A DNA stretch of 64,000 nt from Alphaproteobacteria bacterium (GCA_037200005.1 JBBCGY010000001.1:42416-106415), one strand, 5' to 3'. Shown: positions 7,151-59,550, numbered from the stretch's first letter. The notes: generated by a model not told the origin, from the sequence alone. Numbers and translations: made by a program.

Positions 7151-7233
7151 GGAACAATGTGAATGGTCTGTTAGGGGCAAAAAACTCGTCACATCCAACT
7201 TATCAAGTACGTTCCTCGGAAAGAGCTACTCAC

Positions 7234-8319
7234 ATGACCTTTGACCGCAACACACCCTACAACGATCTTCCGCTTTTGCCACCGGCGCAGATCGACCTGG
7301 AAACAAAGCCTATTCTCAAAAAGGCGATCACGGCGAATATCGCGCTTGCCAAGCTGTTCGACGCGGGAAAGTTGATTCCCAATCAGGCGCTTCTGGTTCA
7401 GGCGATTGGGTTGCAGGAAGCCAAGCTGTCCAGTGAAATCGAGAATATCGTCACGACCAATGACGATCTTTACCGCGCTTTCGCGGATGAGGGCGTGCAT
7501 TCCAGCCCCGCAGCCAAAGAGGTTCTGTTTTACAAGGACGCGCTCTGGAAAGGCTATAACGCGATCAAACTGGAAAAGCGCCCGCTCTCCACGCGCCTTT
7601 TTGAAGATACGTTCCGCATTATCAAGCAATCCTCTGACGGCATCCGGCGTTTGCCGGGCACGAAATTATCGAACCCGGCAGGCGAGATTATCTACACGCC
7701 GCCCGAAGGCGAAAATCTTTTGCGTGACAAGCTCTCCAATCTCGAAAAATTTCTTTACGCCGAAGACGGGCTTGATCCTTTGATCAAAATGGCCGTCATG
7801 CACTATCAATTCGAGGCTATTCATCCCTTCACCGACGGCAATGGGCGCACGGGGCGCATTCTCAATCTTTTATATTTGATCGAGTGCGGGTTGCTGGAGA
7901 TTCCGGTTTTGTATCTATCCCGCTACATCATCGAACACAAAACGGATTATTATCTGGGACTGCGCGGCGTAACCGAGGGGCAAAATTGGGAATCGTGGAT
8001 TCTCTATATTCTCGATGCGATTGAAGTGACGGCGCAGATGACCAGAGATCGGATTCTTCGCATTCATTCTTTAATGGACAAGACGGCGGAGGCGGTCAAA
8101 GCCCAGGCTCCCAAAATCTATTCCAAAGACCTTATTGAGGTGATTTTCCGCCAACCCTACTGTAAAATTCGCTTTTTGGAGGAGGCAGGGATTGCCCAAA
8201 GGCAGACCGCCTCCACTTATCTCTCCAAATTAGAGGCTTTGGGTATTTTGGAGTCCGTAAAGGCTGGACGCGAGAAATATTATATTAATCCGGCATTCTT
8301 TAACCTTTTGGCAGAATGA
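7234..8319 (+). CDS. Fic family protein (AMPylase-type Fic, class II with N-terminal inhibitory motif, C-terminal wHTH)
   Basis: Canonical Fic motif HPFTDGNGRTGR; N-terminal 'MTFDRNTPYNDLPLLPP' typical of the Fic N-terminal domain; 'SSEIEN' fits the (S/T)xxxE(G/N) inhibitory motif; start taken at an internal Met of ORF 7159-8319. Confidence 0.85.
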   Translation: MTFDRNTPYNDLPLLPPAQIDLETKPILKKAITANIALAKLFDAGKLIPNQALLVQAIGLQEAKLSSEIENIVTTNDDLYRAFADEGVHSSPAAKEVLFYKDALWKGYNAIKLEKRPLSTRLFEDTFRIIKQSSDGIRRLPGTKLSNPAGEIIYTPPEGENLLRDKLSNLEKFLYAEDGLDPLIKMAVMHYQFEAIHPFTDGNGRTGRILNLLYLIECGLLEIPVLYLSRYIIEHKTDYYLGLRGVTEGQNWESWILYILDAIEVTAQMTRDRILRIHSLMDKTAEAVKAQAPKIYSKDLIEVIFRQPYCKIRFLEEAGIAQRQTASTYLSKLEALGILESVKAGREKYYINPAFFNLLAE

Positions 8320-8386
8320 CATGGTTATTTTCTGCATGTTTATGAAGTGCTTAGGTGATATGTTGTTTTGATCGACACATCGTTCC

Positions 8387-8503: not shown

Positions 8504-11500
8504 ATGGTCGCTGACATTCAATACACCCAGCCGGAACCGAATTATGACGGATTCCGCGAAGCGCATGTTGAAGAAGCAACTTTCGATTGGCTCTCTGGGC
8601 TTGGCTGGACACTCGCGCATGGGCCGGATTTGGCACCGGAAGGCAAAGCCCCGGAGCGGGCCAGTTATGGCGACGTGCTGTTGTTGGGGCGGTTGAGGAC
8701 AGCCTTGGCCGCGATCAACCCGCAACTCCCCGCCGATGCGATTGACGACGTGGTGCGTAAGATTATCGCAGTCGAAATGCCGTCTTTGGTCGAAGAAAAC
8801 CGGCGCTTGCATAAACTGATGGTCGATGGCGTGGCTGTGCAATACATGCAGGCCGACGGCACGATCAAAAACGACATCGCGTGGCTGATCGACTGGGAAA
8901 ACAAAAAGAACGATTGGCTGGCCGTCAATCAATTCACGGTCATCGAAGAACGCAACAATCGCCGCCCCGACGTGGTGATGTTTATCAACGGTTTGCCCCT
9001 TGCCGTTATTGAATTGAAGAACGCGGGAGACGAAAACGCGACAATCGAAGGCGCGTTCCGCCAGACGCAAGCTTACAAGCAATTGATCCCTTCTCTGTTT
9101 CGCACGAACGGCATACTGATTATTTCCGACGGACTGAAAGCCCGCATCGGCAGCCTGACCGCAGATTATGAGCGTTTCATGCCATGGCGCACGGTGGATG
9201 GGGCCGGTGTCGCGGCCAAAGGAACGCCCGAATTACACACAATGATTCACGGCGTTTTTGAGCAAGGGCGTTTTCTGGAGTTATTGCGCCGGTTCACCGT
9301 GTTTCAAAGCAACGGCAAAGATATTTTCAAAATCGTAGCAGGATATCACCAGTTCCACGCCGTAAAGCTCGCCGTTGCCAGCACCATCGACGCAACGGCC
9401 AGTGAAGGAAATCGCAAAGTCGGCGTCATCTGGCATACGCAAGGATCGGGCAAAAGCCTGTTGATGGCATTTTATGCGGGCAGCGTGATTGCCAATCCTG
9501 CGATGGCCAATCCGACTCTGGTTGTGCTGACCGACCGGAATGATCTGGACGACCAGCTTTTTTAACACTTTCAGCCTATCTCGTGATCTTATCCGCCAGA
9601 CGCCCGCGCAAGCGGGAGATCGCGATGAATTGCGGAAGCTTCTGGCGGTATCATCTGGCGGCGTTATCTTTACGACCATTCAAAAATTTCTGCCCGCTGA
9701 TAGTGAAAAAACTTTCCCGCTGTTGACTGACCGCAAGAATGTCATCGTCATCGCCGATGAAGCGCACCGCAGCCAATATGGCTTCAAGGCCAAGTTGGAT
9801 AAAAAGTCGGGCGAATTAGCTTATGGTTTTGCGAAACACCTGCGCGATGCGCTGCCGAATGCGTCCTTCATTGGCTTTACAGGAACGCCTATTGAGAAAG
9901 CAGATGTCAATACGCCCGCCGTATTCGGCGATTATATTGATGTCTATGATATTCAACGCGCGGTCGAAGACGGCGCGACGGTGCCAATCTATTACGAAAG
10001 CCGCCTAGCCAAACTCCAGCTTGACGAAGAGGAAGTCAAAAATCTTGATGCTGAGGTCGAAGAACTGACCGAAGACGAAGAATCCAGCGAGCGCGAGCGT
10101 AAGAAAAGCAAATGGTCGCGCGTTGAAGCCCTGTGGGAGCCGAAACACGCTTGGCTCAAGTAGCCGCCGATATTGTTCAGCATTTTGAGAACCGTATCAG
10201 CGCCTTAGACGGCAAAGGCATGACCGTATGCATGAGTCGCCGTATTTGCGTGGCGCTCTATAACGAGATTATTAAATTACGGCCCGCATGGCATTCAGAC
10301 GATGACGCGCAAGGCGCTATCAAGATTGTGATGACGGGCAATATCGCCAACGATCCGCCTGAATGGTTGAAACATACGGGCAGCAAGGCGCGCCGTGATT
10401 TCCTGGCAAAGCGGGCGCGCGACGCTAAAGACCCGCTAAAACTTGTTATCGTTCGTGATATGTGGCTTACGGGCTTTGATGCGCCCTGCATGCACACGAT
10501 GTATGTCGATAAGCCGATGCATGGTCATGGCTTGATGCAGGCCATTGCCCGTGTAAATCGCGTATTCCGCGACAAGCCAGGCGGCTTGATCGTTGATTAT
10601 ATCGGGATTGCCCATAATCTGAAACAAGCTCTCTCTATTTATTCCCCCGGCGACCGCGAAGAAGTCGGCATTGACGAGCAGCAAGCCGTCGCAGAGATGA
10701 TGCGCCGCTATGAAATCGTCCGGGATATGTTTTATGGATTCGATTATATGCGCGCGCTGCACGGCACACCGGCTGAACGCTTAGTGCTGATGGCCGAGGC
10801 TCTGGAGTGGATTCTCGATTTGCAGCAACGTGAAGCTGCAAAAGAACAGACCGAACAAGCCAGGAAAGAGGTGCGCCGCAAATTCTCAGACGCCGTTGTT
10901 GGCTTATCGCGCGCCTATGCGCTGGCCGCAACCTCGCCAGAAGCGGGGAAAATTCGTGATGAAGTCGGTTTCTTCCAGGCTATTCGTGCAGCCCTGGCAA
11001 AAAATGAGCCGGGCAAAGGTAGCACACAGGCGGAAATCGATGTGGCCGTCCAACAAATGGTCAGTCGTGCCGTGGTGTCAACGGAGATTGTCGATATTCT
11101 GGCGGCGGCAGGCATTAGAACCCCGGATATATCCATCCTCTCAGATGAATTTCTGGCAGAAATTCAAGGCATGAAGAAGCGTAACCTTGCATTGGAAGCC
11201 TTACAGAAACTCATCAATGGAGAAATAAAATCCCGCATCAAATCGAACGTGGTGCAATCTAAGAAATTCAGCGAACGACTGGAAGCCGCCGTCCGGCGCT
11301 ATCATAACAACGCTATAACTGCCGCGCAGCTTTTGGAGGAGCTGATTGCCATCGCAAAGGATATTAAAGCTGACCGCGAACGAGGAGAAGAACAAGGACT
11401 TAGCGAAGAGGAAATCGCTTTTTATGATGCTCTGGCTGAAAATGAAAGCGCATTGCAGTTGTTGGGCGATGAGAAATTACGAGTGATTGCTACTGAACTG

Positions 11501-11680
11501 GTTGTCTCCGTTCGCAATAATGTGTCTGTTGACTGGATGCACCGCGATAGCGCCCGCGCCAAGTTGCGCATCGAAGTCAAAAAGATTCTCAAGAAATATG
11601 GCTATCCGCCAGATTTACAGGATGCAGCGGTGCAACTGGTGTTGCAGCAGGCCGAAGTTTTGGCCCCACTCTGGGCATAA
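8504..11680 (+). pseudogene. hsdR: type I restriction enzyme R subunit (HsdR), disrupted by two frameshifts (~9555 and ~10140)
   Basis: Three consecutive ORFs (frames 2/3/2) cover an HsdR: N-terminal domain, DEAD-box helicase motifs 'HTQGSGKS', '[12 protein letters not shown]', 'FTGTP', C-terminal domain. First break is in a T6 run (ctttttt; dropping one T reads DDQLFNTF). Second is a 1-nt loss at 'ctgtggga' (restoring g gives [17 protein letters not shown]). Confidence 0.85.
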
Positions 11681-11772
11681 CAATCGCTGACGGCGATCTT
11701 TGGAATTCTATGTAAGAGGCTGCAACAGGTAAGGCCAGATTATGACCGAGAGGAACGAAGATTCTTAAACAA

Positions 11773-12903
11773 TCAAAGCGCCAGCCGGGGCCGGATTAGC
11801 GACAAAGGCCGGGCAGTGGAAAGCTGGAGGCCAACAGCTTCGTTTGGAACATTGGAAAAATCGGTAATAAGCGGCAGCATGGCGTTAGGGCCAAGGGCGC
11901 GTGGTGAGGCACCTAGTTCTTTAAGAGCGGAAACAATTTCCGGTTCATTTAGCGCATGAATGCGCATAAGGGGTTGCGTAGTGTCAGGAATCCATTTCCT
12001 GCGCGAGACTTCATCGCGGCCCGTCGAGATAAGTGCCGCGACCACGTCCTTGAGTTTGTCGCCTTTCGGCAGATTGCCGTTGCTGGTGATTTGAGCGCGG
12101 ACAATCGGCTCGCCCAGGAAGGTCGAAATGGCTTCCGTAAAACTGGCGGCGATTTTCTGATTGCCGTCCTCACTTTGCCAATTCGCCAGGAACACATTTG
12201 GCAAGCTGGAGTCTTTGCCGGGTTTCGCGGCGAAGTCCGCGAGCTGGATTGCAACTCGTGAGCGGCCCGTTTCAATGGGCGCATCGCCGATAAATTCCAG
12301 AACGGCGCTATCGTCCGGCGCTCCCATCGTCGCACCGAGTTTCTTGAAGATGCCGGTCATGGCCGCATTGCCGCCCGCATATTCGCCGACGCGGCCGCGC
12401 GAGACGAGGCCATAGGGCGAATAGCCTTGTTCGCGGCTGACGGATCGCCGGATTTTCTCGTAGATAAAATGCGAGCCAAGTCCAATGCCATTCGGGTATT
12501 CCGCGCTTTTTGTGCGATTACGGAATTCCTGGGATAGTTCCGGCGACACATAGGTATCTTCGCCATAGATAGCAGGATAATGGCGGAAATCCCGGCCATT
12601 GCGTTCCGTGAGAACGGTCGGAAACTCGATTGAGCCACCGGCGAGTTTGGGGCTGCAATTTTCCCACTCCACGATGGCGAAATAAGCCTGAATTTTATTT
12701 TTCTTGATGGCCTCGATAACTTTGCCGAATTTGGCGTTATCAGCGGACGCTCCATGCGTCACGGCTTCACTTTCGACGATTCTATAAAGAATCTCATCAA
12801 GCGCCATATGATGAACGACGTCCGTACCGTTCATGCGCACGATGCTGGCTTTGGCGTTTCCCGGCAGCAGACCGGGCATATTATCGAGCGCAACGGAAGA
12901 CAT
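11773..12903 (-). CDS. hypothetical protein, family A (paralog of 24000-25298)
   Basis: 376 aa; shares blocks with the 432-aa protein at 24000 (KLAGGSIEFPTV/KLAGAAIELPTV, HYPAIYGEDT, YPNGIGLGS/YPNGLGLGT, KIAASFTEAISTF, PIVR.Q.TSNGNLP.GD, MRIHAL.EPEIV.ALK.LGA.PR.LGP); immediately downstream of the HTH regulator gene (2-nt gap). Confidence 0.6.
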   Translation of the reverse strand: MSSVALDNMPGLLPGNAKASIVRMNGTDVVHHMALDEILYRIVESEAVTHGASADNAKFGKVIEAIKKNKIQAYFAIVEWENCSPKLAGGSIEFPTVLTERNGRDFRHYPAIYGEDTYVSPELSQEFRNRTKSAEYPNGIGLGSHFIYEKIRRSVSREQGYSPYGLVSRGRVGEYAGGNAAMTGIFKKLGATMGAPDDSAVLEFIGDAPIETGRSRVAIQLADFAAKPGKDSSLPNVFLANWQSEDGNQKIAASFTEAISTFLGEPIVRAQITSNGNLPKGDKLKDVVAALISTGRDEVSRRKWIPDTTQPLMRIHALNEPEIVSALKELGASPRALGPNAMLPLITDFSNVPNEAVGLQLSTARPLSLIRPRLAL

Positions 12904-12905: not shown

Positions 12906-13556
12906 TTATATTTTCCCCTTGTCGTCGGGGATCGAAGCATTTTCCCAGAATGATTCAAATTGCTCGACATATCTTTCGGCCAAGGGCTTGGAGTGTATCG
13001 AAACGACTTCGACATTATGATCGCTGCGATGCACCGCCTGGGCGATATAGTCATTATAGACGTAATAGGGAATGAGGATTTTCGTCGTCTTATCCAGCCA
13101 GCGATATTCGCAATAGCTGGCGGAGAAATTATAGTCGCCATCCAGGATAAGAACGCGGGCGTCAAGATTCGGAAGCTTGCTCATTCTTTCCATATGCTCG
13201 GTCGCATAATCTTGCGCATAGGAAAGGGTCTTGCCGTCGCTGGAATTAAACTGGCGAATGCGTCCACCGTCTTTCAGCGTTTCGTATATATGATCGAGGA
13301 ATTGTCGGTATCCGGCTTTGCCCGAAAAAACCCTGACTTGGTTTCTCCGCATCCGAACGCCCTCGTCATCCAGGAATTCGACGCCGTGCCGGTCGAAAGC
13401 ATTGGTTATGCTGGCGATGGTCTTCTCATGCGGTTGTACCGTATCGGCCTCGATTTTGCTCACGGTCACGCGGGTAAGCCCGGCCTCCCTAGCCAAGTCT
13501 TCCGCTTTCCATTCCAGTAAGCTGCGCGCTGCGCGAATTTGACGCCCGGTAATCAT
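12906..13556 (-). CDS. XRE-family HTH transcriptional regulator with C-terminal domain of unknown function
   Basis: N-terminal 'RQIRAARSLLEWKAEDLAREAGLTRVTVSKIE' is a typical Cro/C1 HTH; ~150-aa C-terminal domain unassigned. Confidence 0.7.
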   Translation of the reverse strand: MITGRQIRAARSLLEWKAEDLAREAGLTRVTVSKIEADTVQPHEKTIASITNAFDRHGVEFLDDEGVRMRRNQVRVFSGKAGYRQFLDHIYETLKDGGRIRQFNSSDGKTLSYAQDYATEHMERMSKLPNLDARVLILDGDYNFSASYCEYRWLDKTTKILIPYYVYNDYIAQAVHRSDHNVEVVSIHSKPLAERYVEQFESFWENASIPDDKGKI

Positions 13557-17800: not shown

Positions 17801-20202
17801 CGTATGACGTGACCGACCGGATGGGTCTGGTGAAGCGTTTCGGCTACGACAATCTCGACCGGGTAACGCGGGTGGATTACGCCCCCGGCACGGCGGGCAC
17901 GACCTATGAGACGAACACCTATACCAACCTCGACCTGACATCGCACCGCGACCGGCTTGGCCGGGTTAGCACCGATGTTTACACGGCGAACCGGCAGCTG
18001 TGGCTGAGCTTCAATGCTTCGGGAACGCGGCGGGGCTTCACCTATTACCCGAACGGCGCGCTACAAGGCTACTACGACGAGAACGACCATCCTACAATCT
18101 ACGGCATCGACGGCCAGGGACGCGCCAACGCCGTCGTCTATCCCAATGGCAACCAGACGAATTACTACTACGATGATGGCGGGCGGATGCGCACCATTGT
18201 CGATCTCGACGGCTCGAACCAGCGCTGGCGGAACATTAAATATAACGTCGATAATAGCGTCCATATCCGCGACTATACCAACCCGGCAAATCCGTCCGAT
18301 CCCGTGGTTCTGGCGACGACAACCGCGACCTTCACCTACGATCCATGGTTCCCCGGACAAATGACTTCAATGGCCGATGCCAGCGGAACGACCAACTATA
18401 CATACAAAACCGTAGGCACCGTCGGCGCCTTACAACTCGCGACCGAAAATCCGCCGACGGTAAGCGGCGACGCGGATAAAATCACCTACACCTATGACCA
18501 GAAGGGACGGCTCGCCTCGCGCCAGATCGGTATCGGCACGGCGAGCGTGCTGCCGCAGGAAAGCTGGGTGCGCGACACCTATGGCCGCATTAACAGGCAC
18601 ATCATTCCCGACGGCAACCTGTTCTATTACGACTTCAACGGCGCGAGCAATCAGGTGACAATGCGCGCGTTTCGCAATCAGGCGCTGACGGAGATCGACC
18701 CGCTGAATACGCGCACGATGATGAGCTACGACACGGCGGCGAACGACTCGCGGCTGCTGACGATCAACAACCCGCCCTACGACAACAGCGCGCCCGGCGC
18801 GCGGGACTTCACCCTCAATTGGGGATCGTCGCCCGCCAATCCGTACGTTCCGGCGACGATCACCGACTCCGCTGGAGGCCCCGGCGGGGCGTGGGGACAG
18901 CGGGTGTGGACGATGGGCTATGACGCGCGCGACCGGCTGACCTCGGCGGTCGCCGCCGACCGCAGCTATTCGTTTACCCTGGACGCGCCGGGCAACGCGA
19001 CGAGCTTCACCAGCACGCACTATCCGAGCGGCGGGCTGTATAGCTTTAACTCGACCTACAACACGTCGAACCAGATGACGGTGGCGAACGGCAACGCGCT
19101 GATCTACGACCCCTACGGCAACCTCGTCACCCACACGAACTACCGCAGCTTCAAGTACGACGCCGAGAACCGCCTGATCGAGGTCGACTTCCCCGCCGCG
19201 CCCGCCGACAAGGTTGAGATGCAATATGACGGTCTTGGTCGCCGCACGCAGATCAAATCCACCATCGGCGGCGTCGTCACGACGCGGAACCTGCAATGGT
19301 GCGCCCAGACGACCTCGCCGCCGTTCCAGGGCGCGGCGGAAGAGATATGCGTCGAGCGCGACGCATCGGGCGGCATGCAGCGCATGGTCTATCCCGAGGG
19401 CGAATATCGCGCCAACGGCGGCCGGTACTTTTATGAACGCGACCAGACCGGCAACATCCGCGACGTGATGAAGATGGCGGCGGGATTGACGACCGCCGCG
19501 CGCGATAGCTCCTTCAACTACACGCCTTATGGCGGCGTCGACGGCAAAGACGGCACTGCCGAGCCGCTGCAGCAGTTCGCGGGACTGCTGTATGAGAAGA
19601 ACAGCAACCTGTTCCTCTCCCGCACCCGCGCCTATGCCCCATGGATCGGCAGATGGCTCCAGCGCGATCCGATTGGGCAGAATGGGGGGAGTAATGTTTA
19701 TGAGTATGCGGGGGCGAGTCCGATTAACAAGATTGATCCGAGCGGGTTGCAGGGGGTGCGACCTGGGTTAATAGAAACGATGCGACCTACAATAGGAGTG
19801 CCACCAGCAGCGGGGATCAACGAGGGGGCAGGAAATTACGCCGATTATCTTCAAGAAAATGGAGAAATGATGGGTGATCTAGCCACCCTTTATAGGGCCA
19901 CTAGCGCGGCGGTTGCCGGTGCGAGCAACCAATCAATGCGAGAGGATATTGAAAAAGCAAAAGTATGCACATCGTTTGGAAACAGCATGTCGGCGGATCA
20001 GCCGTTATGGTGCGGGCCTGGCGGATGCGCGGATAGCGTCAGGCAGCAGTGGCTGGATGCGACCGGCGGCTTAGTGTATCCACAAATCATCGAGTCTTTC
20101 AAAAAGAGGTTTGAACCGGCTCCCTCGCGGCTTGTGTCGACGCCGATGCGTGGCAATGACTTCGGTAATTCGGTTTTATTCCCTAATGTGGGCCCAGGTT
20201 AG
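14821..20202 (+). CDS. RHS/YD-repeat toxin with N-terminal HAF-type extracellular repeats and a C-terminal variable toxin domain
   Basis: 1793 aa. N-terminal repeated 'GINDAGQIVG' and 'HAFLVQSGTLTDLG' motifs (HAF-repeat-like); many YD-type repeats (YDxxGRL, YTYD, YDALGR). RHS core end motif 'YEYAGASPINKIDPSGL' is followed by a ~150-aa Cys-containing CT domain. Confidence 0.9.
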   Translation: MVAPAKKFHEANGELTNEAGATRPPLSRNSLWRTLRPGISVGVSLAAVVACESGEPNASNDNIVSISQAIGSATIYSLPTNVLMPNAINNQNLIVGQGLPSIYDANTGTFSSLEVNQPSGAVTSYAISNAGHVVGNSFNVGPVSNSAFISQGGHLSDLYAGNNNGVTSVAYGVNNYGQVVGTMPVTVNDANNSPHPFTHAFSWQGSVTDLTPNYYGNSAAYGINDAGQIVGTIGTAGVKWQGGSSSTLPSGTSTPAMINNVGQIVGTYSSGGSSHAFLVQSGTLTDLGAIQGSTPVRINNKGQVTGGFYNTGAGQYYPSVWQNGVVVTIPTLSGIPAGWSITSINGINDSGTVVGQGTLSGSSRGFYLTSPQLLNYAIAGKPYDPKANGGEDSASTPTDDLCGTHGMCVPNAQLLSASLNLNDTPIGYQPPKGPPAYIRLTYNHRDSVAPSSTSSHVGPNWTLNVISYIQDDPASPGQSVTRNVAGGGIVDYTFEAGQFNTTTGAFGPEKQTGAILKRTPATGFSASASYELSFPDGAKQIFSYPDGSFNYPRRAFLTDIVDASGQGLHFGYNYLQGTFGAINCTPGCPQLQSVSDANFRATNFVYGDASNVLRVTRINDPFGRHADLAYDGSGRLSSITDVIGIQSSFTYDTTDPTFIKKLTTPYGDSNFVFGQDTATDRRWLTLSDAVGNTEKVEYRGSSASGIAACDKNTSDASCSVSTSVPTGMPNGINNADLDKRNTFVWNKWMYANGYGSDYTQANVTHWLKDGAGNPVGIPESVKPLYESRIWYNYPGQNDPSTPGTLSVPRATGRVITDPLYGQAPQNQVYQSQYNSLGKPTLTVDPYKVSGNNNEGRTTRMTYDASGVDLLTVEQKTGSGTPGTWATIASYVYTDPTEQPTSIHKPIRYTDAAGQTYKFKYNGDGQLIYAANPYNDTTYNEYHPSGKLLRTTMPVPSVNWNTIDYGTDINGAPTGASNSSALRDTAITYDSADRPYDVTDRMGLVKRFGYDNLDRVTRVDYAPGTAGTTYETNTYTNLDLTSHRDRLGRVSTDVYTANRQLWLSFNASGTRRGFTYYPNGALQGYYDENDHPTIYGIDGQGRANAVVYPNGNQTNYYYDDGGRMRTIVDLDGSNQRWRNIKYNVDNSVHIRDYTNPANPSDPVVLATTTATFTYDPWFPGQMTSMADASGTTNYTYKTVGTVGALQLATENPPTVSGDADKITYTYDQKGRLASRQIGIGTASVLPQESWVRDTYGRINRHIIPDGNLFYYDFNGASNQVTMRAFRNQALTEIDPLNTRTMMSYDTAANDSRLLTINNPPYDNSAPGARDFTLNWGSSPANPYVPATITDSAGGPGGAWGQRVWTMGYDARDRLTSAVAADRSYSFTLDAPGNATSFTSTHYPSGGLYSFNSTYNTSNQMTVANGNALIYDPYGNLVTHTNYRSFKYDAENRLIEVDFPAAPADKVEMQYDGLGRRTQIKSTIGGVVTTRNLQWCAQTTSPPFQGAAEEICVERDASGGMQRMVYPEGEYRANGGRYFYERDQTGNIRDVMKMAAGLTTAARDSSFNYTPYGGVDGKDGTAEPLQQFAGLLYEKNSNLFLSRTRAYAPWIGRWLQRDPIGQNGGSNVYEYAGASPINKIDPSGLQGVRPGLIETMRPTIGVPPAAGINEGAGNYADYLQENGEMMGDLATLYRATSAAVAGASNQSMREDIEKAKVCTSFGNSMSADQPLWCGPGGCADSVRQQWLDATGGLVYPQIIESFKKRFEPAPSRLVSTPMRGNDFGNSVLFPNVGPG
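18992..19752. repeat. direct repeat copy 1 (3' part of RHS core), ~99% identical to 21503-22263
   Basis: identical antisense ORFs 19140-19385 and 21651-21896 in the track; aligned offset 2511 nt; the few mismatches give G->D and K->R differences. Confidence 0.85.
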
Positions 20203-20206
20203 TCCT

Positions 20207-21478
20207 ATGAAAAAGTTTACTCTATTGCTTGTCGCGCTTTGTAGTCTGACAATGTTACCGGCTCATGCCGCTGACCAAGACTCCAAACCACCCGTCATTG
20301 ATATTCCTGCCACGCGAAAAGAGGCGGAGTCTGGAGATGCTCGGGCTCAATATAATCTGGGCATAGCTTATCTCAACGGTTACGGGGTGAAGAAAAATAA
20401 AGATGAAGCTATTGAATGGATTTACAAAGCAGGGAAGAACAATGATGCCCTCGCAATATATTTCTTGGGCAGCGCATATCATGATGGCGACCTTTTGCCA
20501 CAAGACTACGCCAAGGCTATGAAGTGGTATCACAGGTCCGATGAATTATACGGCAGTCCCCTTGCGCAGAATATGCTTGGCGTGATGCACGAAAACGGTC
20601 AGGGGGCTCCACAGAATTATGAAGAAGCGGCTAGGTGGTATCGCAAAGCTGCCGAGAATATTTACGCACCGGCTCAATCCCATCTTGGATTCCTATACTA
20701 CGCTGGACGCGGCGTTCCTAAGGACGATCAAAAGGCTCTATATTGGCTTAAGAAAGCAGCCATACAAAACGATGCGCCAGCAAAGCTTATGCTAGGCATT
20801 ATGCACTATAAAGGCGAAGGAGTGGAAAAGAATTACGTTAAAGCTGTCAGCTATTTTCGCGAAGCCGCAGACGTCGGAATATCGATAGCTGAACGATATT
20901 TGGGAAATATGTATTACCACGGCGAAGGCGTTTCCAAGGATGAAGCCCAGGCTGTGTCTTGGTGGCGCAAAGCCGCCGAACAAGGGGATAGGGAGTCGGA
21001 AAAGATCATAGGTGGTATGTACTATTATGGCACAGGAGTGTCGAAGGATTTTTCCCAAGCCGTTTTATGGTGGCAAAAAGCTGCGGAAAAGGGTGATGTC
21101 GATGCTCAATGCAACTTGGCGAAAGCTTACTATCATGGAGAAGGTATAGGAAAAGATGAAACTCAAGCTGTGTTATGGTGGCGGAGGGCCGCGGCACAAG
21201 GACATGGAGAATCCCTCCTTTATTTAGGACAAGCGTATTTTAGTAGCATAGGCGTATCGCAAGATGATGTGCAGGCTTATATATGGCTAAGCTTGGCGGC
21301 TACAAGAAATCAGTCGTCAGCGGTTGCAACACTCACGGAACTCGAAAAGTCCATGACGCCGGAACAAATCGCTGAAGCCAGAAAACGCGTGGCAGAATGG
21401 AAACCCAAGCCTGAGCCAAAGCCTGCCCCAATAGGGCCAATACCCGAAATTCTAAAAGAAGTCCGTGAAGATTTATGA
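20207..21478 (+). CDS. Sel1-repeat (SLR/TPR-like) periplasmic protein, probable cognate immunity protein for the RHS CT toxin
   Basis: Starts 5 nt after the RHS stop; signal peptide MKKFTLLLVALCSLTMLPAHA; ~9 Sel1 repeats (AQYNLGIAYLNGYGVKKN..., AxxWYRKAAE...); start taken at an internal Met of ORF 20111-21478. Confidence 0.75.
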   Translation: MKKFTLLLVALCSLTMLPAHAADQDSKPPVIDIPATRKEAESGDARAQYNLGIAYLNGYGVKKNKDEAIEWIYKAGKNNDALAIYFLGSAYHDGDLLPQDYAKAMKWYHRSDELYGSPLAQNMLGVMHENGQGAPQNYEEAARWYRKAAENIYAPAQSHLGFLYYAGRGVPKDDQKALYWLKKAAIQNDAPAKLMLGIMHYKGEGVEKNYVKAVSYFREAADVGISIAERYLGNMYYHGEGVSKDEAQAVSWWRKAAEQGDRESEKIIGGMYYYGTGVSKDFSQAVLWWQKAAEKGDVDAQCNLAKAYYHGEGIGKDETQAVLWWRRAAAQGHGESLLYLGQAYFSSIGVSQDDVQAYIWLSLAATRNQSSAVATLTELEKSMTPEQIAEARKRVAEWKPKPEPKPAPIGPIPEILKEVREDL

Positions 21479-22668
21479 TCTCGACTTCGAGGATGCATTT
21501 GGGCAATGCGACGAGCTTCACCAGCACGCACTATCCGAGCGGCGGGCTGTATAGCTTTAACTCGACCTACAACACGTCGAACCAGATGACGGTGGCGAAC
21601 GGCAACGCGCTGATCTACGACCCCTACGGCAACCTCGTCACCCACACGAACTACCGCAGCTTCAAGTACGACGCCGAGAATCGCCTGATCGAGGTCGACT
21701 TCCCCGCCGCGCCCGCCGACAAGGTTGAGATGCAATATGACGGTCTTGGCCGCCGCACGCAGATCAAATCCACCATCGGGGGCGTCGTCACGACGCGGAA
21801 TCTGCAATGGTGCGCCCAGACGACCTCGCCGCCGTTCCAGGGCGCGGCGGAAGAGATATGCGTCGAGCGCGACGCATCGGGCGGCATGCAGCGCATGGTC
21901 TATCCCGAGGGCGAATATCGCGCCAACGGCGACCGGTACTTTTATGAACGCGACCAGACCGGCAACATCCGCGACGTGATGAAGATGGCGGCGGGATTGA
22001 CGACCGCCGCGCGCGACAGCTCCTTCAACTACACGCCTTATGGCGGCGTCGACGGCAGAGACGGCACCGCCGAGCCGCTGCAGCAGTTCGCGGGACTGCT
22101 GTATGAGAAGAACAGCAACCTGTTCCTCTCCCGCACCCGCGCCTACGCCCCATGGATCGGCAGATGGCTCCAGCGCGATCCGATTGGGCAGAATGGCGGC
22201 GCGAATGTTTATGAATATGCGGGGGCGAGTCCGATTAACAAGATTGATCCGAGCGGGCTTCAAAGCATCCAGAATGCGGATGACTGGATAAAACAGAGAA
22301 ATGCCCCTGCTCAGCCGTCAAATAGTATTTGGAGTGAGATCCTAGATAAAATCAGAGAACCTGTGTCTAGAAATGAAGCCATTAGTGAGATTACAAATTT
22401 CCGTCAATCTGGAGAGGCCCAAACTGAAGCACAGATAGCTAGAATGCTCATGGGTTTACCCGTCGAACCTGATTTTTCTGTTGCTATAGGAGGGGCTGAA
22501 GGTGAGCAAGATCTTGGCAGAGCGATTATGTCGGTAGCGCGCGAGATTTTGCGCCGCCCTGCGGAGCAGTCGTGCCCAATAGTTCAGAGAAAAGTCTTCG
22601 GTCAATCCTTGCCACCAAGTGATTTTGGTGACAAGAATCTCCCACTGCCATCTATATTAACCCTTTAA
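21475..22668 (+). CDS. orphan RHS C-terminal module (core tail + alternative CT toxin domain)
   Basis: ATGA overlap with the preceding Sel1 gene. After a 9-aa unique leader, residues match RHS 1391-1644 nearly identically through 'DPSGLQ', then diverge into a different ~135-aa C-terminal domain. Confidence 0.8.
   Translation: MISTSRMHLGNATSFTSTHYPSGGLYSFNSTYNTSNQMTVANGNALIYDPYGNLVTHTNYRSFKYDAENRLIEVDFPAAPADKVEMQYDGLGRRTQIKSTIGGVVTTRNLQWCAQTTSPPFQGAAEEICVERDASGGMQRMVYPEGEYRANGDRYFYERDQTGNIRDVMKMAAGLTTAARDSSFNYTPYGGVDGRDGTAEPLQQFAGLLYEKNSNLFLSRTRAYAPWIGRWLQRDPIGQNGGANVYEYAGASPINKIDPSGLQSIQNADDWIKQRNAPAQPSNSIWSEILDKIREPVSRNEAISEITNFRQSGEAQTEAQIARMLMGLPVEPDFSVAIGGAEGEQDLGRAIMSVAREILRRPAEQSCPIVQRKVFGQSLPPSDFGDKNLPLPSILTL
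21503..22263. repeat. direct repeat copy 2 (orphan RHS core tail)
   Basis: see copy 1. Confidence 0.85.
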
Positions 22669-22700
22669 AGAATATGAGTGGAATTGAGGGAGTTAATGCA

Positions 22701-23489
22701 ATGAAGAAGATAATTATTATTACGGCATTTGCTTTGATGGTCGCATCAGTTCAAGCTTATGCTGCCGTCCAGGATGAAAAAGCCGACAGTTTGTTAGGGC
22801 ATCGCCTGTCCGAACAATTACGGAAAACAGAAGCGCAGACAACTCTTGCTGCGGGAAAAGAGCTATTTAAAACAGGCGAAGGTCTTTCTAAGGATAATGT
22901 CGATGCAGTAAAGCTATTTCGCGTAGCTGCCAATCTTGGCTCGATGGAGGCACAAACAATTCTCGGCGCTGCATACCTTAGTGGCGATGGAGTGCAAAAA
23001 GATATTCCTGAAGCTTTAAAATGGATACAAAAATCTGCCGCCCAAGGAGACGCCAAGGCTCAACATTTATTGGGTGTATTGTATCATGAAGGATCAGACG
23101 TAAAAAAAGACAATGTGAAATCGTTAAAATGGATACGGAAAGCAGCGGAGCAAGGTTTGCCATCGGCACAATTTAGTCTTGGCACTATGCTTTCTAAAGG
23201 ATATGGAACACACCGAGATGAAACTTCAGCGATGGAATGGTTTCATAAATCCGCAAACCAAGGCTATGCTAAGGCCCAAATTATGCTCGGAATTGCATAT
23301 CACCTAGGTAAAGATATATCTAAAGACGATATTCTAGCTGATCAATGGCTGATATTGGCCGGGGAAAAAGAGGCACGTGATGATTTGGAAAAATCCATGA
23401 CCCCCGAACAAATCGCCGAAGCTATAAACCGCGCGGCGGAATGGAAGCCGAAACCACCAACCAAGCCCGATCCTGAATCCAAACCGTAG
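22701..23489 (+). CDS. Sel1-repeat periplasmic protein, probable immunity protein for the orphan CT toxin
   Basis: RBS 'gaggga' 9 nt upstream; signal peptide MKKIIIITAFALMVASVQAYA; Sel1 repeats; C-terminal tail 'EKSMTPEQIAEAINRAAEWKPKPPTKP' resembles the first Sel1 protein ('EKSMTPEQIAEARKRVAEWKPKPEPKP'). Confidence 0.7.
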   Translation: MKKIIIITAFALMVASVQAYAAVQDEKADSLLGHRLSEQLRKTEAQTTLAAGKELFKTGEGLSKDNVDAVKLFRVAANLGSMEAQTILGAAYLSGDGVQKDIPEALKWIQKSAAQGDAKAQHLLGVLYHEGSDVKKDNVKSLKWIRKAAEQGLPSAQFSLGTMLSKGYGTHRDETSAMEWFHKSANQGYAKAQIMLGIAYHLGKDISKDDILADQWLILAGEKEARDDLEKSMTPEQIAEAINRAAEWKPKPPTKPDPESKP

Positions 23490-23513
23490 CGTCTAATTTC
23501 AAGGCAAGAAGCG

Positions 23514-23882
23514 ATGAAATTTATCCGATTTTATGTCGTTGCATCTCTTGTTCTTGGAGTTTTGCAGATTGCTGACGGCATCGTTCTTGTTTCGTATGGC
23601 ACAATAGCAATTAGTAATATTTTCTCTTTGCTCGAAGCTATATGGGTTGTTGTCTCGATGATAGCGCTTTGGTTTTTCATAAAAAGCAAATTTCCAATAT
23701 TCATTCCGACGACATATATTTTATACAATGTTGCTGGCTGGGGATACGGGGCCTATTTGTTTTCACAATTGCAAAATTCTGACCAAATAATCGACGTTCC
23801 TCTTTGGTTTAAAATTGCGGGTATTTGTTTTGGCATCTATTTTGCCTGCGTAAATTTCATATTGTATAAACGAAAACTGTGA
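23514..23882 (+). CDS. small 4-TM membrane protein (AT-rich), unknown; possible orphan immunity-like gene
   Basis: 122 aa with four hydrophobic segments; very low GC compared with surroundings. Confidence 0.45.
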   Translation: MKFIRFYVVASLVLGVLQIADGIVLVSYGTIAISNIFSLLEAIWVVVSMIALWFFIKSKFPIFIPTTYILYNVAGWGYGAYLFSQLQNSDQIIDVPLWFKIAGICFGIYFACVNFILYKRKL

Positions 23883-23999
23883 ATCATCTTCCAGCAAGCT
23901 GGGTAGCGCACTGACTTTGGCGATGAAACTAAATTGATTGATTGCCCCATGCTGGCATTAAATTGTATATTCTGAGGTACATTTTAGGGCGGCATATTT

Positions 24000-25298
24000 A
24001 TGAATCAGGCATTTAACTCCGATCCCTATAAGCGCCTGCCCGGCGGCATCCGGGCGGCGGTTTTGCCGATGCAGGGGGCCGACCTTGTGCATCAAGCCAC
24101 GCTCGGCGCGGCGCTTGAGCATATCATCGGTCATGAGGCTGCGGTTCATGAAGCGGCTTTCCAAAGCCAGCATTTTCACAAGATTTTGAAGGCAAGCGAG
24201 AAAGGCGAAATCAACGTCCTTTTTCTTATGGCCGCGATGCATACATGTTTGCCGAAATTGGCGGGCGCGGCGATTGAACTTCCGACCGTCATTACGAAAT
24301 GGCAAGGCAACGAGTTTAAGCACTATCCCGCCATCTATGGCGAAGATACATGCGTTCTGCCGGAATTCTCCAAAACCTTCCGCGAAAAGACGGCGGGCGC
24401 GCTTTATCCTAATGGCCTGGGCCTTGGCACATGGTTCGCCAAAGAACGGATCGAAGGATCGGTATCGGGCCGCTCTGGGTTCGCGCCTCTCGGCATGGTG
24501 TCCCAAGGCCGTGTTTGTGAATATTCCGGGCATAACGGGCCGATGATTGGACTCTTGAACAAATTCGGTGCAACGACTGCGCCGGACGCGAGCGCAGTCC
24601 TCGAACTCGACGGCCTCACTCCCACGATGAAAAGCCGCTGGCAAGTGCCGGTCGATACTGAAGCCTTGGCCGATCAGAACGGCAAGCCCCTCGACAATAT
24701 TTTCGTAACGAGATGGTCAGGCGAAAGCGGCAAGCAACAAATCGCCGCAAGCTTTACGAAAACCATCTCCACCTTTACCGGCGATCCTATTGTGCGCGTT
24801 CAGCTAACGAGCAACGGCAATCTTCCGAATGGCGATATGCTGCAAAATGTACTATCTTCACTGCTGGCTGCCGGTCACGACGAAATCCGCGAGCGGAAAT
24901 GGGCCATAGCAGGCGAATTAAAAAGTGTTGCTAGCAACCGAAGCCCGATCATCCCGCTCCTTGCTTCCCGGCAGCAGCAAATGGCTGCGCTTCTGTCCGC
25001 AGGGCGAGATGAAATTCTATCCCGGCGTATCGGCATGGATGATTTAAGCCATATTTTCGGCGGCGCGGTTCCGACAATGCGGATTCATGCGCTCAGGAAG
25101 CCGGAAATAGTCGCGGCCTTGAAAGACTTAGGTGCACAACCCCGTATTCTCGGCCCCCACGTCATGCTGCCCGCGATTATGGACTTCGCCAATATGCCGC
25201 AGGAGGCGCTTAATTTCGATCTGCCCCCGGCGAGGCCGCTGAATACGGTCAATCATAGAGGCGCAACCAGCACGCCGCTTTTCTCTCTGGCGGCATAA
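24000..25298 (+). CDS. hypothetical protein, family A paralog
   Basis: 432 aa; conserved blocks shared with 11773-12903 (see that feature). Confidence 0.6.
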   Translation: MNQAFNSDPYKRLPGGIRAAVLPMQGADLVHQATLGAALEHIIGHEAAVHEAAFQSQHFHKILKASEKGEINVLFLMAAMHTCLPKLAGAAIELPTVITKWQGNEFKHYPAIYGEDTCVLPEFSKTFREKTAGALYPNGLGLGTWFAKERIEGSVSGRSGFAPLGMVSQGRVCEYSGHNGPMIGLLNKFGATTAPDASAVLELDGLTPTMKSRWQVPVDTEALADQNGKPLDNIFVTRWSGESGKQQIAASFTKTISTFTGDPIVRVQLTSNGNLPNGDMLQNVLSSLLAAGHDEIRERKWAIAGELKSVASNRSPIIPLLASRQQQMAALLSAGRDEILSRRIGMDDLSHIFGGAVPTMRIHALRKPEIVAALKDLGAQPRILGPHVMLPAIMDFANMPQEALNFDLPPARPLNTVNHRGATSTPLFSLAA

Positions 25299-25524
25299 CC
25301 ACCTCTTGATCTAAATTCCAACAATAGATCGACTTTCCGCGAGGGCGCGGAAAGCGGTTCCCGCCGCCGTTCTGCCGCGTAAAGAACGCGGCGCGGTGGC
25401 TCGCTACGCGCTGCGCCGACAAGAGCGGCTTACGCTTTCGCGCCCCCAAGCGGGCGCATTTGCTTACCGGCATGAGTGAGCGCGGCCAGCACCACTCTCT
25501 ATTTCCAACCGCCTTTTTCTAACC

Positions 25525-25552
25525 CCCTCTTTCGCCGAAAGAGGGTTTTTTC
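25525..25552 (+). terminator. putative rho-independent terminator
   Basis: 'cccctctttcgccgaaagagggtttttt': GC stem with T-run, downstream of 24000-25298. Confidence 0.4.
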
Positions 25553-25584
25553 ATTTCAACCACAGCATAACAAGGGAGGAAGAT

Positions 25585-25776
25585 ATGAGCCAGGAAGCAT
25601 ATCGCGTGAAAGAATTCTGCAACCGCTACGCCATTTCAAAAGCCAGCTTCTACCGGGAAACAGCGGCGAAGCGGCTGCATATCCTAAAACGTGGCCGTAC
25701 AACGCTCGTTGCCCGCACCGAAGCCGAACGCTGGTTTGAAAGCCTTGGCCAAGGCCAGCCGCAGCAATCAGCCTGA
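25585..25776 (+). CDS. AlpA/Xis-like DNA-binding protein (prophage CP4-57 regulatory family)
   Basis: 63 aa, 'KEFCNRYAISKASFYRETAAKRLHILKRGRTTLV' fits the AlpA HTH; strong RBS 'gggaggaag'; sits directly upstream of the integrase. Confidence 0.65.
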   Translation: MSQEAYRVKEFCNRYAISKASFYRETAAKRLHILKRGRTTLVARTEAERWFESLGQGQPQQSA

Positions 25777-25843
25777 TCGCATTCAATATCCCGAATATTT
25801 CCAAAGCCATTTTTCGTCAATCTTATTCTCATGGAGGCATGTC

Positions 25844-27031
25844 ATGCGCCATACGGGACATATTCGCCAGCGTTCAGAAGGGAGTTTCGAGCTTCGCTAT
25901 AGCATCGGCACCGATCCGGTCACGGGAAAATGGAAAGTCAAAACCGTCACCGTTAAGGGAACGCGCAAAGCTGCCGAGAAAGAATTGCGCCGCATACTCG
26001 ATGCAATCGATGACAATGATTATGTCGAACCCAATAAAATCACTACCCGTGATTTTTTGACACAATGGCTTGAAACAATGCGTTCCCAGATAACCCCCAA
26101 ATCCTATGAAAGCTACGCTGAAATAGTCGATAACTTCCTTATCCCAACTCTTGGCGGTCATATTCTGGCGAAACTTGCTCCGGCTGTTATCCAAAAAGCC
26201 TACAATGGATGGGAAGCTGGTGGCCGCAGGGATAAAAAGGCGGGCGGGCTGGCGGCGCGTTCCCGTCTCTATATCCACCGCATCCTTAAATCGGCACTCA
26301 AACATGCCGTGCAAATACAGCTAATCGCCCGCAATCCCGCCGACGCGGTTAAAGCGCCGCGCGTCAAGAAAGCCGCCATAACTACATTGACCGTGGATCA
26401 ATCGGCGGCGCTGCTCGATGCCCTGTCCGGCAAGCCGCTTTATTGGCCTGTGTTGCTTGCCCTAACAACGGGCATGCGCCGGGGTGAAATTCTGGCGCTT
26501 CGCTGGAAGAATATCGACTTTGAAAAGAAAACTGTTCGCGTCGTCGAAAGTCTAGAGCAAACCAACACAGGCATTCGCTTCAAGGCTCCGAAAACGGAAC
26601 GGAGTCGTGCCGTCATGTTGCCGGATTATGCCGTTGAAGAACTGCGGAGACTGAAAAAAGAACAGGAGAAAAAATTGTCGGAATCAGGAATCGGCCAAAC
26701 CACTGAAACGCTGGTTTGCGGTCGCTATGACGGCGAACCGCTATGGCCTACCTCACTTACGCATGAATTCGTGAAGGCCATGAAGAAACTGCCGAAACTG
26801 CCGCGCGCCAGATTCCATGATTTGCGCCATTCCCATGCCACGCAACTCCTGACAGCAGGAATCCATCCCAAAATCGCGCAAGAACGGCTGGGACATACCA
26901 CGATTACGACAACCCTAGACCTCTATTCCCATGCGACGGACACCATGCAAGACGAGGCTGCATCAAAGCTCGACAATGCCTTCCGTTCTGCTATAAAGGC
27001 CCGTTCCGACCAAGCGCCACGACTAGGATAA
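25844..27031 (+). CDS. int: tyrosine-type site-specific recombinase / phage integrase
   Basis: C-terminal catalytic signature 'RFHDLRHSHAT...LGHTTITTTLDLYSH' (R..HxxR..Y); N-terminal SAM-like domain; start taken at the internal ATG with 'ggaggc' RBS. Confidence 0.9.
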   Translation: MRHTGHIRQRSEGSFELRYSIGTDPVTGKWKVKTVTVKGTRKAAEKELRRILDAIDDNDYVEPNKITTRDFLTQWLETMRSQITPKSYESYAEIVDNFLIPTLGGHILAKLAPAVIQKAYNGWEAGGRRDKKAGGLAARSRLYIHRILKSALKHAVQIQLIARNPADAVKAPRVKKAAITTLTVDQSAALLDALSGKPLYWPVLLALTTGMRRGEILALRWKNIDFEKKTVRVVESLEQTNTGIRFKAPKTERSRAVMLPDYAVEELRRLKKEQEKKLSESGIGQTTETLVCGRYDGEPLWPTSLTHEFVKAMKKLPKLPRARFHDLRHSHATQLLTAGIHPKIAQERLGHTTITTTLDLYSHATDTMQDEAASKLDNAFRSAIKARSDQAPRLG

Positions 27032-27111
27032 ATTGGTTCTGTAGCAATTTCTGTAGCAAAATCGATTTTGCTTCCGGTAGGAATACTCTAAGTGTATGTT
27101 TTTGCTGATGT

Positions 27112-27187
27112 GACCTTGTAGCTCAGCCGGTAGAGCATCTGACTTTTAATCAGGGGGTCGCGGGTTCGAACCCCGCCGAGGTCACCA
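27112..27187 (+). tRNA. tRNA-Lys (anticodon UUU)
   Basis: 76-nt cloverleaf folded by hand: acceptor GACCTTG/CGAGGTC, D-stem GCTC/GAGC, anticodon loop CTTTTAA, T-arm GCGGG-TTCGAAC-CCCGC, encoded CCA. Confidence 0.9.
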
Positions 27188-47325: not shown

Positions 47326-48003
47326 TTACCGCAGCATAAACGCCCATTCCAGCGTCACCAGACCGCCCGCCGCCGCATTCTGGCATTCCGTGACCGCCTG
47401 CGTCGGATTAACCGGCAGGCTGGTCCCATTCGCCCACACCGTTCCCGCCGCCGTATAGGCCGTCCCGGCAGGGCCGCCGAATAGAACCGCCCGCAGCATC
47501 ATTTTCTGATCCGGCGCGGAGATGCGCGACGCGAGCGCGATACAAACGTCAACCGGCAAATTGGCATAACGCACGCCAAAACTTGTTTCGCCCGGCGCGG
47601 CGGCGGCGGCCGTATTCAGATCCTTGTCCATCGGCTCGACGACAACCGCTCCCCAATCATTGGCGGGCGGAGTGCCGGGCACGCCGCCGATCATGTCGCT
47701 CGGAAAAGCGCCCTGGCAGCTCAATTTGGCCGTCAAATCCGCAGGATTGCAGCCGCCAATCGGGCTGTTGTCATGATAAATTCCCCGCTGGCTGGTATAA
47801 ATGCCGCGCACATTGGCGACAATTTCGAACAGCTGTTCGCCCGCCTTGTTGATGGAAGTGGAGCGGCTCACCCGGCCCGCCGCGAACATAATCCCGGCGA
47901 CGACCATTCCAGCGACGCCCAGCACGATGGCGGCCTCGACCAAAGAGAAGCCGGAGAATGAGCGGCCCCGCCTTCTGTTTTTTTCTCTCCGGCTAAAATC
48001 CAC
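47326..48003 (-). CDS. type IVb prepilin-like protein
   Basis: leader ...RSFSG then FSLVEAAIVLGVAGMV. Confidence 0.7.
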   Translation of the reverse strand: MDFSRREKNRRRGRSFSGFSLVEAAIVLGVAGMVVAGIMFAAGRVSRSTSINKAGEQLFEIVANVRGIYTSQRGIYHDNSPIGGCNPADLTAKLSCQGAFPSDMIGGVPGTPPANDWGAVVVEPMDKDLNTAAAAAPGETSFGVRYANLPVDVCIALASRISAPDQKMMLRAVLFGGPAGTAYTAAGTVWANGTSLPVNPTQAVTECQNAAAGGLVTLEWAFMLR

Positions 48004-51009: not shown

Positions 51010-51015
51010 AATATC

Positions 51016-51855: not shown

Positions 51856-52129
51856 CCTACACTCCTTCGACCAGCCAGGGATCGTCCGATCGGTCAAACT
51901 TCTGATAAAGCCCCCAGGATCGGAGGCCCCATACCTAATCTGGGAAGTCGGTTCATCATCGGCGAATAGGGTTAAGTTCCCGTAAACATAGGCTTTATGA
52001 ACCTCGTGCCATTAACGAATGGTTATCGCCCTGCGGCAAGGCGTCAGTTTTGAAATCGGGCATGGAGGGGGATTGGCCTTCATGTCGGCCTAGACGCGGC
52101 GCGGCGCGGCGGCAGGGCGACAAAAAGCG

Positions 52130-53386: not shown

Positions 53387-53388
53387 TA

Positions 53389-53651
53389 GGGTCCAACCTT
53401 AATTAGAATGGGGTTTCGCGCAGGCGAAAAAGCCGCCCGGCTACGAAAAGACAGAAGCAGGTATCGGCGACTACCTGCGAGGTCTTTGAGAACGCCGGTC
53501 GGCTTTTTCGCCGCGCCCCTTGGGTATGCAAAAGAAGGCCGATCTGCGTTGTCGGCTTCGCTCGCCGTAGATTGACTACGGCTTCGCTCGCCTCCTAGCA
53601 TCTCAGCCTTCTTTTGCATACGAAACTCCCATTCTAATTAAGGTTGGACCC
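53389..53651. mobile_element. 263-bp MITE-like element with ~31-bp terminal inverted repeats and TA target-site duplication (Tc1/IS630-like)
   Basis: TIR-L GGGTCCAACCTTAATTAGAATGGGGTTTCG (53389-) vs TIR-R CGAAACTCCCATTCTAATTAAGGTTGGACCC (-53651), 30/31 complementary; flanked by TA on both sides; internal sub-palindromes; no ORF. Confidence 0.6.
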
Positions 53652-55207: not shown

Positions 55208-55270
55208 CATTCTTTCCATCCAAGGCTAATTGAGGCGCGAACCTTATGACTTAATTGTTAACATTGGCTT

Positions 55271-56713: not shown

Positions 56714-56762
56714 AGGAGGGATAAAACCGATTCGTGATTCATACTACGTTATAGTCAGTCCG

Positions 56763-59549: not shown

Positions 59550-59550
59550 T

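Follow-up and report, generated by a model that had tools for sequence, protein, structure and literature searches.

A 64-kb window (the whole 64,000-nt stretch analyzed, JBBCGY010000001.1:42416-106415) from a metagenome-assembled genome (MAG) of an uncultured alphaproteobacterium, a member of a poorly studied lineage, was revealed to contain an Rhs locus in which the end of the Rhs core is present twice. The locus is probably composed of an Rhs/YD-repeat polymorphic toxin gene and one displaced orphan toxin/immunity module, situated in an integrase island beside a tRNA-Lys gene. On one strand, the main Rhs gene (1793 aa) is followed by a Sel1-repeat gene (Sel1-1), an orphan fragment of the Rhs core joined to an alternative C-terminal toxin tip (CT2), a second Sel1-repeat gene (Sel1-2), and a short open reading frame (ORF) with four putative transmembrane segments (4-TM ORF). 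The C-terminal toxin tip of the main Rhs protein is designated as CT1. Loci with a main and an orphan gene, and the recombination between the two, are textbook knowledge for Rhs and contact-dependent inhibition systems, and by analogy this locus is of the same known kind, a main/orphan Rhs toxin-immunity locus. The coordinates are compiled in Table 1.

A direct repeat was detected by self-comparison. The final 254 core codons of the Rhs gene recur 2511 nt downstream (3 x 837 nt, in frame), with 18 mismatches in 762 nt (19 when the last base is counted), or about 97.6% identity. Blocks of perfect identity are up to 173 bp long, and tblastn aligned 257 aa of the repeat at 97.7% identity. The borders are sharp, and identity collapses on both sides; a match of such length and identity cannot be chance. 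Sixteen codons differ between the copies, 13 of them synonymously (ratio of nonsynonymous to synonymous differences, pN/pS, ~0.12), which suggests that the orphan core segment diverged as functional coding sequence. The repeat ends one codon past the DPSGL self-cleavage motif. Thus, its 3' edge corresponds to the core/toxin boundary, and everything beyond it is variable tip.

The orphan is a 5'-truncated rhs gene downstream of Sel1-1 on the same strand, with a high-identity core, a different tip, and its own downstream gene. Its ATG overlaps the stop codon of Sel1-1 (TTATGA) and is preceded by only a weak purine-rich stretch; 26 unique nucleotides then lead into the repeat. The Rhs-associated core (TIGR03696, 2.9e-20) occupies aa 186-262 of the orphan product, which lacks the N-terminal shell, and no export signal was seen in the sequence of this ORF. 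The orphan is annotated as a coding sequence in the source record, contig JBBCBH010010965.1 of NCBI assembly GCA_037975565.1, and the CT2 reading frame is intact, with no stop or frameshift. A preceding analysis by a model (the sequence-only reading) had described a 761-bp near-identical direct repeat with an offset of 2511 nt, an orphan copy whose own ATG overlaps the stop of the first immunity gene, and a continuation of that copy into an unrelated tip of ~135 aa. All three descriptions were borne out, with the repeat extents refined as in Table 1 and a CT2 of 134-135 aa.

An assembly duplication had also been raised as a possible refutation, and it was examined by comparing the window with an independent k-mer assembly (Logan) of the short-read run SRR28211700. 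One Logan contig of 1821 bp is 100% identical to positions 19717-21537; it runs from the last part of copy 1 through CT1, Sel1-1, the junction at ATGA, and the linker of 26 nt, and reaches 37 nt into copy 2, far enough to contain the base at 21507 that is specific to this copy. Since this contig crosses the junction between Sel1-1 and the second core, the junction exists in the reads. A second contig is 100% identical to 22228-26882. Both contigs stop with exactly 30 nt of the repeat at their ends, as expected because a genuine two-copy repeat breaks a k=31 graph at this point. The origin of the sequence from a MAG, and a neighboring hsdR gene broken beside a homopolymer by a possible indel error, could point to a duplicated or collapsed contig, or to two strain alleles joined in tandem in the metagenome assembly. 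However, the copies are distinguished by their 18 differences, the boundaries are unique and clean, strain alleles alone could not create the Sel1-1-to-core junction, and both Logan contigs agree with the window. An artefact is therefore extremely improbable, and this objection is effectively excluded.

The main Rhs protein matched Pfam RHS_repeat (3e-24) and the NCBIfam models YD_repeat (1.3e-22), Rhs_assc_core (2.5e-18), and HAF_rpt (4.2e-15). The Rhs-associated core (TIGR03696) covers aa 1567-1643, and the core ends with the sequence …RDPIGQNGG…NKIDPSGL (RDPIGQNGGSNVYEYAGASPINKIDPSGL). The solved Rhs structures (RhsA 7q97, 8h8a, Tse5 8cp6, 8qjd, YenC2 4igl) align up to residue 1642-1643 of the query, the best match being 7q97 (3.7e-19). 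Several of the aligned chains end at this very residue, which marks the self-cleavage site. On these similarities, the main gene encodes a YD-repeat shell whose conserved end is the Rhs aspartyl self-cleavage motif, followed by a variable tip of ~150 residues, CT1.

The N-terminus of the main Rhs protein is a long leader with basic residues, a hydrophobic stretch, and VVAC (…RTLRPGISVGVSLAAVVAC), a pattern that resembles a signal peptide followed by a lipobox; here and below, signal-peptide and lipobox calls were made directly from the sequence. The HAF repeats (TIGR02913) come after this leader. No PAAR domain was detected in the main Rhs protein with Pfam and NCBIfam, and no PAAR, VgrG, Hcp, or other type VI secretion system (T6SS) family was detected in Rhs or in any scanned ORF of the window. 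The leader, the HAF repeats, and the lack of PAAR, VgrG, and T6SS genes in 64 kb suggest that the protein is exported in a Sec/lipoprotein-dependent manner rather than by type VI secretion. A stand-alone 82-aa protein of the LuxR/GerE helix-turn-helix (HTH) type is encoded 82 nt upstream of the Rhs start codon. Among the NCBIfam models, it is matched best by the HTH of EpsA, a PEP-CTERM-associated regulator. It is possibly a regulator of the locus. HAF repeats are also linked to PEP-CTERM proteins.

The two tips are both acidic (pI, isoelectric point, 4.9) and predicted to be helical, and CT1 contains three Cys residues. Neither matched anything in Pfam at E<=1, NCBIfam, PHROGs, PADLOC, or the PDB sequences (E<=10), and neither showed a homologue in a word-indexed search of 5.8 billion proteins. 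An exhaustive phmmer search of CT1 against 1.84 billion representatives returned only CT1 itself and one spurious low-complexity match, and tblastn of CT2 against plasmids gave no match. Single-sequence AlphaFold2 models were unusable, with a mean pLDDT (predicted local distance difference test) of 35 for CT1 and 48 for CT2. A hidden similarity between CT1 and CT2 was considered and rejected: BLASTP gave no alignment of note, and the Smith-Waterman z-score against shuffled sequences was -0.8.

GC (guanine plus cytosine) content falls stepwise along the cassette, from 62% in the repeat and core to 54% in CT1, 48% in Sel1-1, 46% in CT2, 44% in Sel1-2, and 36% in the 4-TM ORF; the window as a whole averages 57%. 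These steps suggest that the tip and immunity modules are foreign and horizontally acquired. A scan of the cassette for promoters and terminators gave counts not above the shuffled expectation.

Each tip is followed by a Sel1-repeat gene with an apparent signal peptide, as the sequence-only reading had stated, and the leaders are of the Sec type. Sel1-1 starts at 20207, 4 nt past the Rhs stop codon, with the leader MKKFTLLLVALCSLTMLPAHA/A, of the type MKK-hydrophobic-AHA/A. Sel1-2 probably starts at 22701, 32 nt after the end of CT2, with the leader MKKIIIITAFALMVASVQAYA/A (AYA/A) and a GAGGGAG Shine-Dalgarno sequence 8 nt upstream; its length of 262 aa is called by both NCBI and Logan, and initiation at the alternative ATG, 22674, would lengthen the protein to 271 aa. 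Both proteins thereby pair Sel1 repeats with an export-signal-like leader in a position next to a tip.

Sel1-1 and Sel1-2 are 42% identical over the best 196 residues, and the nearest database homologue of Sel1-2 is 43% identical. When Sel1-1 is placed among the database Sel1 proteins as a match to Sel1-2, it comes third when the summed HMMER score is used and 33rd when the best local alignment is used. It ranks among ordinary Sel1 proteins, and the possibility that the two genes are recent paralogues was rejected. The common C-terminal tail (MTPEQIAEA..EWKPK), which had been taken as a property shared by the two genes of the cassette, is indeed present in both, with 20/23 residues and 56/69 nt identical and synonymous changes between the copies. 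It is not cassette-specific: MTPxQIAEAQxLAREWKPK occurs in about 40 of 120 unrelated Sel1 homologues, mostly at the C-terminus, and weaker versions are found in two solved Sel1 proteins. A role of the tail as a recombination or cassette signal was rejected on this ground, and from its distribution the tail appears to be a generic capping motif of the family. In other organisms, several close Sel1-repeat homologues (P0084, P0051, P0063, P0012, and P0014) are fused to domains resembling those of toxins or effectors, namely HNH, TIR, staphylococcal nuclease, and trypsin, which indicates that Sel1 arrays have repeatedly been combined with conflict-type domains.

The closest known counterpart is the rhs locus of Salmonella Typhimurium LT2 (STM0291 main, STM0292 orphan, and the rhsI genes; Koskiniemi et al. 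2014, PMC3967940). In both, a full rhs gene, an immunity gene, and a 5'-truncated rhs gene with a different tip and its own downstream gene lie on one strand, and both contain in-frame homology, 522 bp at 95% identity in Salmonella and 762 bp at 97.6% here. The homology in LT2 supports recombination between main and orphan genes, and selection yielded recombinants both in culture and in mice (PMC3967940). The repeat described here is longer and more identical, and its length and identity are thus sufficient for recombination. The two loci differ in other aspects. The Salmonella Rhs is associated with a T6SS, whereas the present locus has no T6SS genes in the window and shows a signal-peptide/lipobox-like leader with HAF repeats. 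The Salmonella orphan lacks a start codon, whereas the orphan here has an ATG overlapping the preceding stop. The genes in the immunity position encode large, apparently exported Sel1-repeat proteins, unlike those of Salmonella, and recombination was observed in Salmonella whereas here it is predicted.

By this analogy, an incoming core end with CT1 and Sel1-1 would have recombined into a resident rhs gene, and the insertion would have pushed the former tip, CT2, and Sel1-2 downstream together with 762 bp of core. RecA-dependent recombination between the two copies could delete 2511 bp, including Sel1-1, and place CT2 on the full-length exported protein. Alternatively, if the locus were duplicated first, recombination could add a chimeric gene beside the original while the immunity to CT1 is kept, as argued for Salmonella. 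The proposal that the repeat is a substrate for toxin swapping stands with regard to the main/orphan anatomy and the long in-frame homology, while actual switching is what we infer from them. Another main/orphan Rhs arrangement appears to be present in a gammaproteobacterial MAG (L008/L048/L049, ~7192-8360 and 11157-12327), where a 1171-bp direct repeat of 98-99% identity flanks the core/CT boundary; it is the only clear one among ~70 related loci, with L072 perhaps a further case.

The orphan could also be a fossil of a past tip replacement with no switching today, in which selection maintains Sel1-2, possibly along with the 4-TM gene, as a store of immunity against CT2-firing neighbors, and the repeat is a remnant not yet decayed. 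The lack of an export signal in the orphan fits this explanation, as does the fact that a simple recombination would lose Sel1-1 and expose the cell to CT1 of its siblings, a cost noted in PMC3967940. The low pN/pS could be explained by divergence before the copies came together, and the existence of orphan immunity genes is recognized (PMC10539506). However, CT2 is an intact ORF in frame with a nearly identical repeat, and the Salmonella genes recombine over a shorter and less identical stretch. Such a fossil is somewhat unlikely, though a serious candidate, and it is compatible with a displaced orphan module rather than mutually exclusive with it.

It is likewise possible to regard the Sel1 proteins not as immunity proteins but as exported accessory or host-interaction factors, such as periplasmic chaperones, adaptors, or surface binders, with true immunity absent (if the toxins target eukaryotes) or provided by another protein, for example the 4-TM protein. 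Sel1 repeats are general protein-binding scaffolds and have been tied to host-directed toxins of intracellular bacteria (PMC3482391). No Sel1 gene was found within 10 kb of any of 70 related Rhs genes from genomes and metagenomes, the four closest Sel1 homologues inspected lie in unrelated neighborhoods with no toxin genes nearby, and two unrelated tips each paired with the same generic repeat family are not usually the product of specific toxin/immunity co-evolution. These three observations also weigh against the assignment of the locus as a toxin/immunity cassette, and so do several others. The toxicity of CT1 and CT2 is assumed from position only, given that no recognizable domain, homologue, or confident structure model was obtained. 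In contrast to its Salmonella counterpart, the orphan has a start codon coupled to the stop of Sel1-1, so that translation of the fragment is possible. A search for natural recombinants and alternative tips in GTDB genomes and JGI metagenomes gave only distant Rhs cores with partial matches at 23-58% identity, and the 70 related Rhs loci contain no homologue of Sel1, CT1, CT2, the 4-TM protein, or the 432-aa protein encoded downstream. Regarding export, a T6SS may lie outside the window, on the remainder of the 1.83-Mb contig or elsewhere in the genome.

Against an accessory role, the Sel1 genes follow the tips at gaps of 4 nt and 32 nt with no space for another ORF in between, their GC content follows the adjacent tip and not the core, and the CT+Sel1 unit would have stayed together on displacement. 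Sel1 immunity proteins also have experimental precedents. Tli5b (PA5086-5088) is a Sel1-repeat immunity protein against PldB in Pseudomonas aeruginosa (PMC13133936), and Sel1E neutralizes VgrG4 of Klebsiella pneumoniae while its paralogue Sel1D does not (PMC7108748). An accessory role is thus regarded as unlikely, and the Sel1 proteins are better seen as putative periplasmic immunity proteins, in view of their position, tight spacing, GC content, retention with the tip, and precedent. If so, the site of action of CT1 and CT2 would be the periplasm or the envelope of the target cell, and an orphan fragment made in the cytoplasm would for that reason do no harm.

The sequence-only reading had called large Sel1 arrays unusual as immunity proteins. 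They are uncommon for Rhs, as the 70 loci indicate, but they are not new, since Tli5b and Sel1E precede them. As in the present locus, the Sel1-repeat genes of the Tli5b/PldB and Sel1E/VgrG4 systems (PMC13133936, PMC7108748) lie directly downstream of an antibacterial toxin gene, sometimes as arrays of paralogues, and Tli5b is periplasmic. In those systems the Sel1 proteins are paired with a phospholipase D and with the C-terminal domain of a VgrG protein, whereas the partners here are Rhs tips, with immunity assigned by position. Sel1-1 and Sel1-2 are not specifically related to Tli5b or Sel1E; generic Sel1 proteins match far better (1e-86) than the weakest of the Sel1 structures listed in the PDB.

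Zhang et al. (2012, PMC3482391) list a class of polymorphic toxins that depend on Sec and combine RHS repeats with beta-propeller repeats. The present locus shares with this class a signal peptide in place of a T5, T6, or T7 trafficking domain, RHS and propeller-type repeats, a variable C-terminal tip, a downstream immunity gene, and the occurrence of stand-alone cassettes. It differs in that its tips belong to no Pfam-detectable Tox or Ntox family, and the N-terminal module of HAF repeats corresponds to no described trafficking domain.

Table 1. Features of the Rhs locus and its flanks (positions counted in the window).
Feature	Position	Strand	Basis
LuxR/GerE-type HTH regulator, 82 aa	14490-14738	+	NCBIfam LuxR-family HTH, best EpsA 5.7e-15; source record: GerE domain
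Main Rhs/YD-repeat gene, 1793 aa	14821-20202	+	Pfam/NCBIfam; GGGGAG Shine-Dalgarno before ATG
Direct repeat copy 1, last 254 codons of Rhs core	18990-19752	+	Self-comparison
CT1, C-terminal toxin tip (putative), 149-150 aa	19753-20199	+	Position after core; no known family
Sel1-1, 423 aa, signal peptide and nine Sel1 repeats	20207-21478	+	Pfam Sel1 4.5e-86, 9 stretches
Orphan rhs fragment, 397 aa: 9 unique codons, 254 core codons, CT2	21475-22668	+	Rhs_assc_core; coding sequence in source record
Direct repeat copy 2	21501-22263	+	Self-comparison
CT2, alternative toxin tip (putative), 134-135 aa	22264-22665	+	Position after orphan core; no known family
Sel1-2, 262 aa, signal peptide, at least four Sel1 repeats	22701-23489	+	Pfam Sel1 1.7e-40
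4-TM ORF, 122 aa, 36% GC	23514-23882	+	Hydropathy: four hydrophobic segments
Tyrosine integrase	25691-27031	+	Pfam Phage_integrase 6e-29
tRNA-Lys(UUU)	27112-27187	+	ARAGORN

The small AT-rich gene with four transmembrane segments noted earlier at the end of the cassette was confirmed by its composition and hydropathy. It is called as a gene by the Logan gene caller and is not included in the NCBI record. No family match was found in Pfam, NCBIfam, PHROGs, or PADLOC, and no match in plasmids. It may be a lone or second, toxin-less immunity gene, or the partner of the downstream gene for a 432-aa protein.

The cassette sits in a mobile genomic island, with the integrase and tRNA-Lys marking its edge. 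A type I restriction-modification system, a Fic protein, an XRE-type HTH gene, and the LuxR/GerE regulator lie upstream of the cassette, and the 432-aa protein gene, an AlpA-like ORF, the tyrosine integrase, and tRNA-Lys(UUU) lie downstream. The right edge of the island (25585-27187, +) is composed of the AlpA-like ORF of 63 aa, the integrase, and the tRNA gene, and the island lies on the 5' side of the tRNA. A search of the rest of the window for a tRNA-derived att direct repeat gave none, and the left boundary of the island is accordingly not defined.

The type I hsdR gene (8504-11680, +) is split into three overlapping ORFs (8504-9565, 9540-10163, and 10133-11680), the first break being beside a T6 homopolymer; the split reflects either a pseudogene or an indel error in the MAG assembly. 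A gene for a Fic/SoFic-type adenylyltransferase (7159-8319, +) lies between the hsdM/S region and hsdR. The 432-aa protein (24000-25298, +) has a 44%-identical paralogue of 376 aa (11773-12903, -), and the pair flanks the Rhs region and is transcribed away from it. Searches of Pfam, NCBIfam, PHROGs, PADLOC, PDB, and plasmids gave no match to either paralogue. The left, 376-aa copy is preceded by the XRE-type HTH gene (12906-13556), and the right, 432-aa copy by the 4-TM ORF. Further downstream, a block at 47801-63971, mostly on the minus strand, encodes T4SS_TraI, PilO-like, secretin, and TcpQ proteins and a T2SSE-family ATPase. This block resembles a second mobile element, one of the conjugative kind that bears a type IVb-like pilus.

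No new principle emerges from the locus, whose architecture is the one expected for Rhs; its value is as a source of parts. CT1 and CT2, which have no detectable relatives, are candidates for new toxin families. A broader reading can be proposed only tentatively: the locus would be a type-VI-independent Rhs weapon, in which a Sec/lipoprotein-exported Rhs protein with a HAF propeller delivers two new periplasm-acting toxin folds, and Sel1 would be a general, evolvable immunity platform adapted independently to each. The locus provides a natural test case for whether Sel1-repeat proteins can be specific immunity proteins against unrelated toxins, and an example of an Rhs protein apparently using Sec/lipoprotein export with HAF repeats, not type VI secretion, in a poorly studied alphaproteobacterial lineage.

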